Positions 18,340 through 19,890 of a DNA stretch of 64,000 bases are shown here, piece by piece; positions within the stretch are counted from its first letter, which is position 1, and each line of letters opens with the position of its first letter. Origin of the DNA: a virus (Duplodnaviria; Caudoviricetes). The position numbers and the translations under genes are program-made. The DNA is taken from IMG/VR virus record IMGVR_UViG_3300042013_000067, positions 160,001 to 224,000 of that record. One strand, 5' to 3'. The notes under the pieces were generated by a model. It was not told the DNA's origin. It did not search any database and saw only the letters and a program-made list of their open reading frames with translations.

Positions 18340-18516
18340 ATGGCACGTTCAAGAAAAGAAGGCGGTACCCGGCGCGATGGTCGCGAATACTGGAGCCGTC
18401 GTCCTAACTGCAATGGTGCAGTGGGTAAGTTTGCCAAACGCATTATCCATGGTCAAGAGCGCTGTATCGCTAAAGACCTGACTCGTAGTGAACTGAAAGC
18501 TCATTTCTCGGAGTGA
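18340..18516 (+). CDS. Small basic protein (58 aa, MARSRKEGG...REYWSRRP)
   Basis: GGAG RBS; below the ORF-track cutoff. Confidence 0.65.
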   Translation: MARSRKEGGTRRDGREYWSRRPNCNGAVGKFAKRIIHGQERCIAKDLTRSELKAHFSE

Positions 18517-18547
18517 GCATAGAGCCGGGGGCAACCCCGGCATTATG
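18499..18547 (+). repeat. Double-hairpin direct repeat, left flank of rtcB
   Basis: 18505-18541 matches 19848-19884 at 34/37 nt. Confidence 0.85.
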
Positions 18548-18579
18548 TCTGTCCCCTCTTTCCAACCGTGTGAGGTTTT

Positions 18580-19839
18580 ATGCAACGCAAGACTTATGAA
18601 TTACTGGGTGGTGATACTCAAGCTGGATTCAAGCCAATTAAAGGCTGGACCATGGGTGTGCCAGTAGAGCCCGATGCCGTTAAACAGCTTAAGAATATAG
18701 CCTCGCTGCCCTTCATCCACTCGCATGTGGCGGTAATGCCTGACGTTCACGTCGGTAAAGGTGCGACCATAGGTACGGTCATCGCCACGCTGGGTGCAAT
18801 CATTCCAGCAGCGGTGGGTGTGGATATCGGTTGTGGCATGGCTGCACAACGTACCTCGCTAACCGCTAATGACCTGCCAGATAACCTGTCTGAGCTGCGG
18901 TCCTTCCTTGAGCAGTTGATCCCGCACGGGCGTACTGACAATGGTGGTGCGAACGATCGTGGTGCTTGGGGTTCTCAGGTAGCTCTGGATCACCAGATAG
19001 ACACAGTTCGTCTGGAAGCATCGCGTCTGCAGTTTGCACTGAATATGCTGGTGGCCAAGCATCCGAAGTTACAACGCGCTGCAGGCCGTGCATGGAATCA
19101 TTGCGGTACACTCGGCACGGGTAACCACTTCGTCGAGATCTGTCTGGATGAAGAAGACCGTGTATGGATCGTGCTGCACTCCGGTTCACGGGGCATCGGT
19201 AACGCCATTGGTACTTACTTCATCGATAAGGCCCAAGGTGAAATGCGGACACATCAGATCAACTTGCCTGATCGTGATCTGGCGTATTTGAAAGAAGGTT
19301 CGGTGTTGTATGCGGATTACCTCGATGCGATCAGCTGGGCACAGCGCTTTGCAGCATTGAACCGTACGGTGATGATGCATGCTGCTATTCAGGCACTGCA
19401 CATGTTCATGCAGCGGCCGATTGATTGTGATCTCGAAGCGGTCAACTGCCATCACAACTACGTGTCCCAAGAATACCACTTTGGTAACGATGTGCTGGTG
19501 ACGCGTAAGGGTGCGGTAAATGCACATGAAGGTTCGCTGGGTATTATCCCTGGTTCCATGGGGGCGAAGACCTTTATCGTCCGTGGTAAGGGTAATACCG
19601 AGTCCTTCTGTTCTTGCTCGCATGGTGCTGGTCGTGTGATGTCCCGTAAGGCGGCAGAGCGTACCTTCACCCTCGAAGACCACATTCGTGATACGGCTGG
19701 GATTGAATGCCGTAAAGATGAAGGTGTGCTCGATGAAACACCGAAAGCGTACAAGAACATCGATGACGTAATGTCCGCACAGGCAGAACTGGTCGATATC
19801 GTTCACACACTACGCCAAGTAGTTTGCGTTAAGGGTTAA
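18580..19839 (+). CDS. rtcB: RtcB RNA-splicing/repair ligase
   Basis: MPDVHVGKGATIG, VGVDIGCGM, LGTGNHFVE, LHSGSRG, HHNY, RKGA, IPGSMG, SCSHGAGR, DETPKAYK. Confidence 0.98.
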   Translation: MQRKTYELLGGDTQAGFKPIKGWTMGVPVEPDAVKQLKNIASLPFIHSHVAVMPDVHVGKGATIGTVIATLGAIIPAAVGVDIGCGMAAQRTSLTANDLPDNLSELRSFLEQLIPHGRTDNGGANDRGAWGSQVALDHQIDTVRLEASRLQFALNMLVAKHPKLQRAAGRAWNHCGTLGTGNHFVEICLDEEDRVWIVLHSGSRGIGNAIGTYFIDKAQGEMRTHQINLPDRDLAYLKEGSVLYADYLDAISWAQRFAALNRTVMMHAAIQALHMFMQRPIDCDLEAVNCHHNYVSQEYHFGNDVLVTRKGAVNAHEGSLGIIPGSMGAKTFIVRGKGNTESFCSCSHGAGRVMSRKAAERTFTLEDHIRDTAGIECRKDEGVLDETPKAYKNIDDVMSAQAELVDIVHTLRQVVCVKG

Positions 19840-19841
19840 AC

Positions 19842-19890
19842 GCCTACTTCTCGGAGTAGGCATAGTGCCGGGGGCAACCCCGGCTCTTAT
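19842..19890 (+). repeat. Double-hairpin direct repeat, right flank of rtcB
   Basis: GCCTACT-TCTCGG-AGTAGGC then ATAGTGCCGGGG-GCAA-CCCCGGCTCTTAT. Confidence 0.85.

Follow-up and report, generated by a model that had tools for sequence, protein, structure and literature searches.

We found that the rtcB gene of a Noxifer-like jumbo phage is enclosed by two near-identical double hairpins, an arrangement that is probably an ordinary recombination scar between related phages, left by an unequal, non-homologous crossover between an rtcB-carrying and an rtcB-lacking genome. The sequence of the locus suggests, about as strongly, that each double hairpin is a copy of the end of a 58-aa ORF (its 3' end) together with its predicted RNA-level terminator. 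In its general character the locus is a case of ordinary phage mosaicism, most like the biology of T4 PeSL elements and of morons.

The window, the 64,000-nt stretch of DNA analyzed in this study, covers positions 160001-224000 of a virus genome of 283,622 bp that has direct terminal repeats. The virus is related to the jumbo phage Noxifer of Pseudomonas, and a phage-type multisubunit RNA polymerase fragment is encoded in its genome. The local gene order, including the repeat and the elements of its two copies, is as follows.

17804-17877: tRNA-Asn, the first in the local gene order
18340-18516, + strand: conserved basic ORF of 58 aa from the ORF list, ending KAHFSE*
18496-18541, + strand: left copy of the 46-nt repeat (ORF 3' end, hairpin A, linker CATAGA, hairpin B)
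18499-18518: hairpin A, left copy
18524-18541: hairpin B stem-loop, left copy
18542-18552, + strand: left predicted terminator tail ATTATGTCTGT, its first base being the unique 3' A of the A.A mismatch
18553-18579, + strand: rtcB leader with ribosome-binding site (CCCTCTTTCCAACCGTGTGAGG...)
18580-19839, + strand: rtcB, RNA 3'-phosphate ligase, 419 aa (Pfam PF01139)
19839-19859, + strand: ghost of a small-ORF 3' end, in-frame NAYFSE*, overlapping the last base of the rtcB stop
19839-19884, + strand: right copy of the 46-nt repeat (hairpin A', linker CATAGT, hairpin B')
19842-19861: hairpin A', right copy
19867-19884: hairpin B', right copy
19885-19920, + strand: ancestral downstream flank (tail TCTTATTCCATCT, RBS GGAG, 13-nt gene-212 remnant)
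19908-19920: the 13-nt gene-212 remnant ATGTTAGCGAGTA, start of a Noxifer gene-212-like ORF
19932-20234, + strand: 100-aa gene module, joined to the 212 remnant
20253-20753: 166-aa ORF
20833-20906: tRNA-Lys

The last codons and the stop of the 58-aa ORF fall inside hairpin A. Orthologues of this ORF in Noxifer and in the related haplotype L006 show 82-91% identity, and its homologues form eight clusters, the closest of which holds nine sequences. Upstream of the ORF, a tRNA-like element at 18160-18266 is absent from the relatives L122 and L123, and other structured elements replace it in other relatives.

The direct repeat that brackets rtcB is 46 nt long, with 39 of 46 positions identical between 18496-18541 and 19839-19884. 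Repeat and pattern searches found only these two copies in the window, and none would be expected in shuffled sequence (100 shuffles). The near-identity that the first-pass annotation had reported for the double hairpins around rtcB (34/37 between 18505-18541 and 19848-19884) was confirmed by sequence and repeat searches. Each copy folds into hairpin A, of 8 bp, and hairpin B, of 7 bp with a GCAA loop. The arms of hairpin A are GCTCATT/AGTGAGC in the left copy and GCCTACT/AGTAGGC in the right, around the loop TCTCGG, and pairing is kept at all three differences. Hairpin B (GCCGGGG-GCAA-CCCCGGC) is the same in both copies, and the position flanking its stem is A.A in the left and T.T in the right. 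Folding and allele comparison accordingly bore out the compensatory changes in hairpin A, the identity of hairpin B and the mismatched flank, all as first described. Across the relatives the hairpin B stem shows one covariation, in L105 (a GCCAGGG/CCCTGGG-type change), and the loop is free to vary; hairpin covariation was counted at three or four pairs across nine alleles. The exact 18-nt stem-loop of hairpin B occurs three times in the genome, in the two copies described here and at genome position 235700. The hairpins gave no match in Rfam. There are 7 differences in 46 positions between the left and right copies, but only 4-5 in 46 between either copy and an allele of another phage. The informative stretches are short (46-87 nt), and over such lengths identities to Noxifer of 89.7% and 83% are not significantly different.

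The architecture of rtcB between two double hairpins is no assembly artefact, since contigs of the source sample match it exactly, an approximately 97% identical contig from a second study runs from the 3' end of rtcB through the right repeat (unchanged) into the downstream flank, and a related phage contig, L104, shows the left junction. The contig set of the second study does not reach the left junction, for which L104 is independent evidence.

ONT-cappable-seq mapping in phiKZ located a conserved intrinsic terminator that consists of a stem-loop followed by YTTATKYYGT (Putzeys et al. 2024, PMC10914365). Hairpin B is built in the same way, as a GC-rich stem-loop with a YTTATKYYGT-like tail directly after it, and appears to be an ordinary predicted terminator of the phiKZ type, its function being predicted from this motif match. 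When perfect GC-rich hairpins were collected genome-wide, 200 strand-specific ones were obtained; TATG lies within 10 nt of the stem in 92 of the 200 (background 1.9%) and TATT in 18 (background 1.5%), and common tails are GCTTTATGCCGT and TCTTATTCCGT. A genome-wide family of terminator-like hairpins is found at gene ends, at about 100 sites. The hairpin at 40614, to which a resemblance to a predicted empty site had been ascribed, does exist as a near variant of hairpin B, but it is just one member of this family. As in phiKZ, the stem here is GC-rich, with 7 bp, a tetraloop and a tail of the form TCTTATTCC(A/G)T or TTTATG(C/T)C(G)T. The stem GCCGGGG/CCCCGGC, however, departs from the common CCCTCCC/GGGAGGG, and a second, coding-overlapping hairpin, hairpin A, precedes hairpin B. 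The tail reads GGC TCTTATTCC(A/G)T in the right copy, L122 and Noxifer, and GGC TTTATGCCGT at the third genome copy of hairpin B. The left tail ATTATGTCTGT is a poorer fit to the phiKZ tail consensus; it is a natural tail allele, whose counterpart in L105 is TTTATGTCTGT. The core of phiKZ late promoters is TATG (PMC4666361), and TATG occurs in the left tail and TATT in the right copy. Since the letters TATG are also part of the terminator tail consensus, the left-tail TATG is inseparable from that consensus as a candidate late promoter. No sigma-70-like promoter was found at the site.

The rtcB gene appears intact: it gives a full-length Pfam RtcB match (PF01139, profile positions 1-426 of 426, 430 bits, E 1.5e-128), and its product aligns with solved RtcB structures, that of P. 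horikoshii included, through the motifs DxH, GCG, HSGSRG, CHHN and SHGAGR, with the metal-binding and His-GMP motifs within the structural alignment. The leader of the gene also precedes rtcB in L008, L002 (RVTF4), L009 and L104. Because its 23-nt core, CCCTCTTTCCAWCCGYGTGAGG, stands upstream of rtcB in unrelated jumbo phages with no hairpin before it, the leader seems to have arrived together with rtcB. The closest rtcB donors are L008 (73% identical in amino acids) and RVTF4 (76% in nucleotides), both with unrelated contexts that lack the hairpins, and no near-identical donor was present in the collections searched. The GC content of rtcB (0.525; GC3 0.531) is like that of the neighbouring genes, so that composition gives no signal.

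About a dozen haplotypes of the locus were assembled from a phage collection, IMG/VR and protein-cluster look-ups. The rtcB gene is missing from at least nine related haplotypes, all of which have the element once, at the syntenic position. Both Noxifer (100% complete) and G001 (97% complete) have a single element there and no rtcB anywhere. The single site of the rtcB-less relatives aligns over 46-48 nt to both copies of the window in blastn searches (Noxifer 4216-4263, L006 5157-5202), and therefore 18542-19838 constitutes an indel with a copy of the duplicated target on either side. What comes after the small ORF and its terminator differs among relatives, as listed below.

L122: 116-aa gene
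L119-121 and L124: 99/100-aa gene
L123 and Noxifer: gene-212 type
L006: gene-214 type
L105-109: 62-aa gene
L110 and L117: 166-aa ORF
L118: contig too short to reach the following gene

The slot behind the small-ORF terminator is a replacement hotspot, in which at least seven different genes occur among the relatives. A scan of metagenome contigs with an alignment of the small ORF found nothing beyond distant matches and a copy of the L006 phage at 99.4%. A pattern scan of viral contigs for hairpin A found only Noxifer and L006 among the relatives of the window phage; there were six other hairpin A pattern matches, and no hairpin B match in the loci then available.

One relative carries rtcB at the same site. 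L104, an 85-kb contig from an independent run, has the gene behind the same terminator tail and leader. It aligns with window positions 18281-19839 as one block of 82.6% nucleotide identity, with flanks at 77-82%, and the block ends at the rtcB stop. Directly after rtcB, L104 has a gene-214 homologue and no second set of hairpins, and a gene-214 homologue also follows the terminator in L006. Since L104 shares the site, rtcB was already there before the window phage and L104 diverged, and the absence of a second copy in L104 shows that the right-hand copy is not required for the presence of rtcB. The 32-nt spacer after rtcB in L104 resembles the 3' end of Noxifer gene 213 in the RBS region only and is not usable for ordering the events. 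These data support the view that rtcB is an acquired accessory gene, located directly behind the predicted terminator. Of the cassette acquisition claimed by the first-pass annotation, the part that stood is that rtcB is accessory and that the rtcB-less relatives have a single element between the flanks; the signature of a crossover in the hairpin core did not.

The right copy begins at the last base of the rtcB stop, with AAC GCC TAC TTC TCG GAG TAG, which encodes NAYFSE*. The same amino acids form the C-terminus of Noxifer_211, P0013 and P0016. This allele class is seen in Noxifer and L123; the real small ORF of the window ends KAHFSE*. Compared with Noxifer, the ghost shows one synonymous change and a TGA-to-TAG change, with hairpin A pairing and the stop both preserved, a pattern that would be expected of an allele once functional as a gene end in another phage. 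The alignment of the right segment to Noxifer and L123 reaches 19920 and to other relatives stops at 19901-19910. In both Noxifer and L123 the NAYFSE allele is followed by gene 212, and the combination of NAYFSE with the start of gene 212 makes the right segment look like one Noxifer-type haplotype that was joined non-homologously to rtcB. The exact parent haplotype (NAYFSE with TAG, ATAGTG, GCAA and gene 212) is not among the haplotypes compared, Noxifer being nearest with 4 of 46 differences. Where the rtcB stop meets the ghost, microhomology is at most approximately 3 nt (TAA). The 212 remnant then gives way abruptly to the RBS of the 100-aa gene, which is approximately 90% identical to a gene placed elsewhere in L104, L110 and L122, which makes this a second, independent recombination joint. 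Both joints lie in unrelated sequence. Since the right copy starts non-homologously at the rtcB stop and holds an ORF ghost, the repeat did not arise by exchange between two pre-existing hairpin sites, as had been suggested.

The first-pass annotation had read the A.A and T.T mismatches as a reciprocal arm swap, in which pairing the arms crosswise restores A-T and T-A, as a crossover inside the core of hairpin B between an empty site and a circular rtcB donor would leave. We compared this diagnostic pair in 13 alleles. The 5' base is A in five of them (window left, L104, L123, L105 and L118), T in three (window right, L122 and Noxifer) and C in the remaining five (L006, L119, L124, L110 and L117). 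The 3' base is T in every allele except window left (A) and L124 (C). The pair is unpaired in 9/13 alleles and formed in 4/13. The hybrid form ATAGAG...CTCTTAT, proposed for the empty site, is present in the rtcB-less L123; alignment of the rtcB-less relatives did not show it in the closest of them, L122, which has T.T with a GCAA loop and from CATAG to GGAG equals the right copy but for one base. Noxifer, likewise, is T.T and not the hybrid. The A-T form occurs in L123, L105 and L118 but also in L104, which carries rtcB, and is therefore non-discriminating as the mark of an empty site. None of the 13 alleles shows the donor form that was predicted, with its 3' A. The arm-swap complementarity comes down to one lineage-specific T-to-A change in the left tail and a polymorphic 5' base, and one such change on a polymorphic base is no evidence for a crossover in the hairpin core. 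With rtcB in L104 lacking a downstream copy, and with no donor 3' A, the core crossover is not sustained.

A probable history for these data is as follows. In a first step, rtcB with its approximately 27-nt leader and RBS would have entered once, from another jumbo-phage lineage, directly behind the terminator; L104, an L006-like arrangement with a clean rtcB insertion, would represent this state. Later, an unequal non-homologous crossover between an rtcB-carrying genome and a co-infecting rtcB-less, Noxifer-like relative would have fused the rtcB stop codon to the small ORF of the relative, at the sixth codon from its end. The exchange would have brought in the relative's ORF end NAYFSE*, its hairpin A allele, terminator and RBS, and the first codons of gene 212, leaving the ORF end and terminator duplicated. 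A further joint would then have replaced gene 212 after its fifth codon. We infer the order of events and the co-infection setting; this is the most economical history, since two observed haplotype classes suffice for it. The identity of the 18-nt hairpin B stem-loop in both copies and at a third genome site counts against it. This identity could stem from homologous exchange or gene conversion within hairpin B.

An alternative, which we consider unlikely, is that both copies arose at once by insertion with duplication of the target, and that L104 later lost the right copy by a deletion from the rtcB stop. Two illegitimate joints, overlapping by approximately 46-60 nt in a Noxifer-like recipient with small ORF, terminator and gene 212, would be required, possibly through replication template switching at a stalled hairpin. 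The count of non-homologous joints equals that of the stepwise history, and the left junction common to the window and L104 and the GCAA loop of hairpin B in both copies are consistent with a single event. However, the copies belong to different allele classes (KAHFSE and NAYFSE, ATAGA and ATAGT) and are closer to the alleles of other phages than to each other, and an L006-like arrangement with a clean insertion is a simpler account of L104 than a deletion that restores the same neighbour. We regard as quite improbable a weakened form of the annotation's model, in which an rtcB circle with one element recombined with the resident element through the general recombination of the phage, in the manner of PeSL, with the crossover in the identical linker or hairpin B stretch. 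The 18-nt identical core and the CATAG common to both copies would provide a substrate, and in T4-type phages mini-circles are formed, and inserted again, between PeSL motifs that contain terminators (PMC2839356). If L122 is taken as the empty site, one crossover within GCATAG would be enough to give both copies, and the variety of at least seven genes behind the same terminator in the relatives agrees with such exchange. Such a circle, however, would already have to contain rtcB joined at its stop to the ghost, leaving the origin of the repeat unexplained; L104 has rtcB without a second element, and a donor-type allele (3' A) is missing among the 13 compared. Assembled contigs (Logan) of the source sample and of the second study contain no joints across the repeats, but since such contigs drop rare forms they speak neither for nor against excision. 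Two joints listed from contigs were conserved rtcB motifs of other organisms. Circle integration of this kind could move an rtcB that is already flanked by repeats.

A more general role of phiKZ-type terminators of Noxifer-like phages as PeSL-like recombination substrates seems to us equally doubtful. If true, rtcB would excise as a mini-circle and reinsert at any of the approximately 100 terminators in co-infecting relatives, and conserved terminators would be the main vehicle of accessory-gene shuffling in Noxifer-like jumbo phages. Cassette integration by a recombinase at folded hairpins, as in integrons, is hardly credible. Its only support is the presence of imperfect, mismatched hairpins beside a single promoterless gene. 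A search for tyrosine recombinases (PF00589) gave no match in the whole 283,622-bp genome, while 14/14 control genomes matched, and this tells against the integron-like mechanism offered by the annotation. Moreover, the mismatched base varies between alleles and at single sites is mostly unpaired, hairpin B is one of a family of about 100 terminators, and the right junction is a ghost of coding sequence. We prefer the stepwise history, with an unequal crossover between related phages.

Among known systems, the PeSL and hyperplastic regions of T4-type phages are closest in the behaviour of the locus (Arbiol et al. 2010, PMC2839356; Comeau et al. 2014, PMC4122927). In both, small accessory genes are bounded by a conserved, GC-rich stem-loop terminator motif that recurs at dispersed positions, and relatives differ by insertion, deletion or replacement of genes, with one motif in some and the gene between two in others; the gene changes between our relatives are bounded by the terminator motif in this way. 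Direct motif repeats could excise the gene as a mini-circle. Unlike PeSL, the element has no sigma-70 early promoter attached, the host genome is that of a phiKZ-like jumbo phage with its own RNA polymerases, and the repeat includes 21 nt of the coding end of the neighbouring ORF, with a non-homologous right joint. The joints do not lie within the shared motif, as homologous exchange of the PeSL type would place them.

The locus is also comparable to morons, a concept reportedly due to Juhala and colleagues (2000, as cited in PMC10914365), and to mosaic joints. A single accessory gene, absent from relatives, stands between two conserved genes with its own predicted terminator after it, and the joints coincide with gene ends or lie only a few bases from them, and show little or no homology. 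Morons are recognized as autonomous genes that relatives lack and that have a terminator and a promoter of their own; rtcB is missing from relatives and has a terminator-like hairpin downstream. In contrast to morons, the phage is virulent, not temperate, and rtcB serves the phage, in RNA repair, rather than a lysogen. Integron cassettes (attC x attI, IntI) share a single gene beside imperfect hairpin sites, but there is no integrase, attC architecture or cassette array here, and the hairpins are predicted terminators found genome-wide. Conserved extrahelical or mismatched bases define the recombination site in integrons, and the corresponding position here is A, T or C.

Taken together, these results reveal no new recombination system and correct the over-reading of a single-base signal; the locus is a well-documented but ordinary instance of phage mosaicism. 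Three states are preserved in nature: a site without rtcB, one with rtcB simply inserted, and one in which the insertion is accompanied by a duplicate of the ORF end and terminator, and from these states the joints are seen to be non-homologous and at gene ends. The locus is a clean and datable case in which a gene for anti-defence or RNA repair can be seen to be acquired and rearranged by a virulent jumbo phage.

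About 100 sites in the whole genome of the phage (G000) carry a GC-rich hairpin followed by (G)CTTTATG(C/T)CGT or TCTTATTCCGT, and at many of them the tail is present on both strands. Judged by their sequence, these tailed hairpins are the phiKZ-type terminator motif; TATG is also the core of the phiKZ late promoter (PMC4666361). Examples in the window, and a further site outside it, are as follows.

13939-13962, tailed GC-rich hairpin
16084-16105, tailed GC-rich hairpin
17146-17167, tailed GC-rich hairpin
18126-18143, tailed GC-rich hairpin
40616-40639, tailed GC-rich hairpin
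G000:C1:235700-235717 (L005:1501-1518), outside the window, hairpin B stem-loop present for a third time, identical to that of the two repeats flanking rtcB

The third copy lies 3' of an unrelated 451-aa ORF and has 22 identical nt (AGTGCCGGGGGCAACCCCGGCT) in common with the repeat 3' of rtcB. We found that the syntenic site of Noxifer has another stem (GCCCGC-TTCG-GCGGGC) and the same tail. The shared 22 nt, together with this change of stem over an unchanged tail, suggest that short-patch conversion occurs between dispersed terminators.

The slot behind the terminator of the conserved small ORF was compared between window 19885-20252 and the syntenic positions in Noxifer (L001), L006 and L104-L124. 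Across related phages this ORF, its terminator and the RBS stay the same, and the gene that comes next is one of at least seven different ones. In comparison with L122 and L104, the 100-aa gene and the gene resembling Noxifer gene 214 have exchanged sides in the window, around a conserved block of a 166-aa ORF, tRNA-Lys and DUF7448. The gene-214 homologue 3' of rtcB in L104 (L104:5536-6300) is called at only 78 aa, and since its similarity to Noxifer_214 goes on in another frame, its short length is probably due to a frameshift or sequencing error. Relatives have free-standing genes of homing-endonuclease type near the slot, and these could stimulate recombination locally; none was found among the five window ORFs scanned.

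L122:2907-3542, HNH_3 gene
L105:6386-7078, GIY-YIG gene, in L105 and L106

Two further elements lie upstream of the small ORF.

18154-18277, tRNA-like element in a second variable slot
18283-18318, short ORF (MPIYEEVRVRL-stop) just 5' of the small ORF

The second slot also follows a phiKZ-type terminator (18126-18143). Its element is missing from L122 and L123, is replaced by a different structured element of ~110 nt in L104 and L110, and has tRNA-like sequences as counterparts in Noxifer and L006; among the relatives compared, it does not strictly co-occur with rtcB. The short ORF overlaps a T-loop-like GTTCGATTGTGACC motif and is conserved at the nucleotide level in all relatives, including the distant L105.

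The island around rtcB contains tRNA-Asn (17804-17877) and tRNA-Lys (20833-20906), to which the Noxifer island (L001 regions 3411-3864 and 6372-6445) adds tRNA-Tyr and tRNA-Asp. Known targets of anticodon nucleases include these isoacceptors, which is in keeping with the place of rtcB in this island as RNA-repair or anti-defence cargo.
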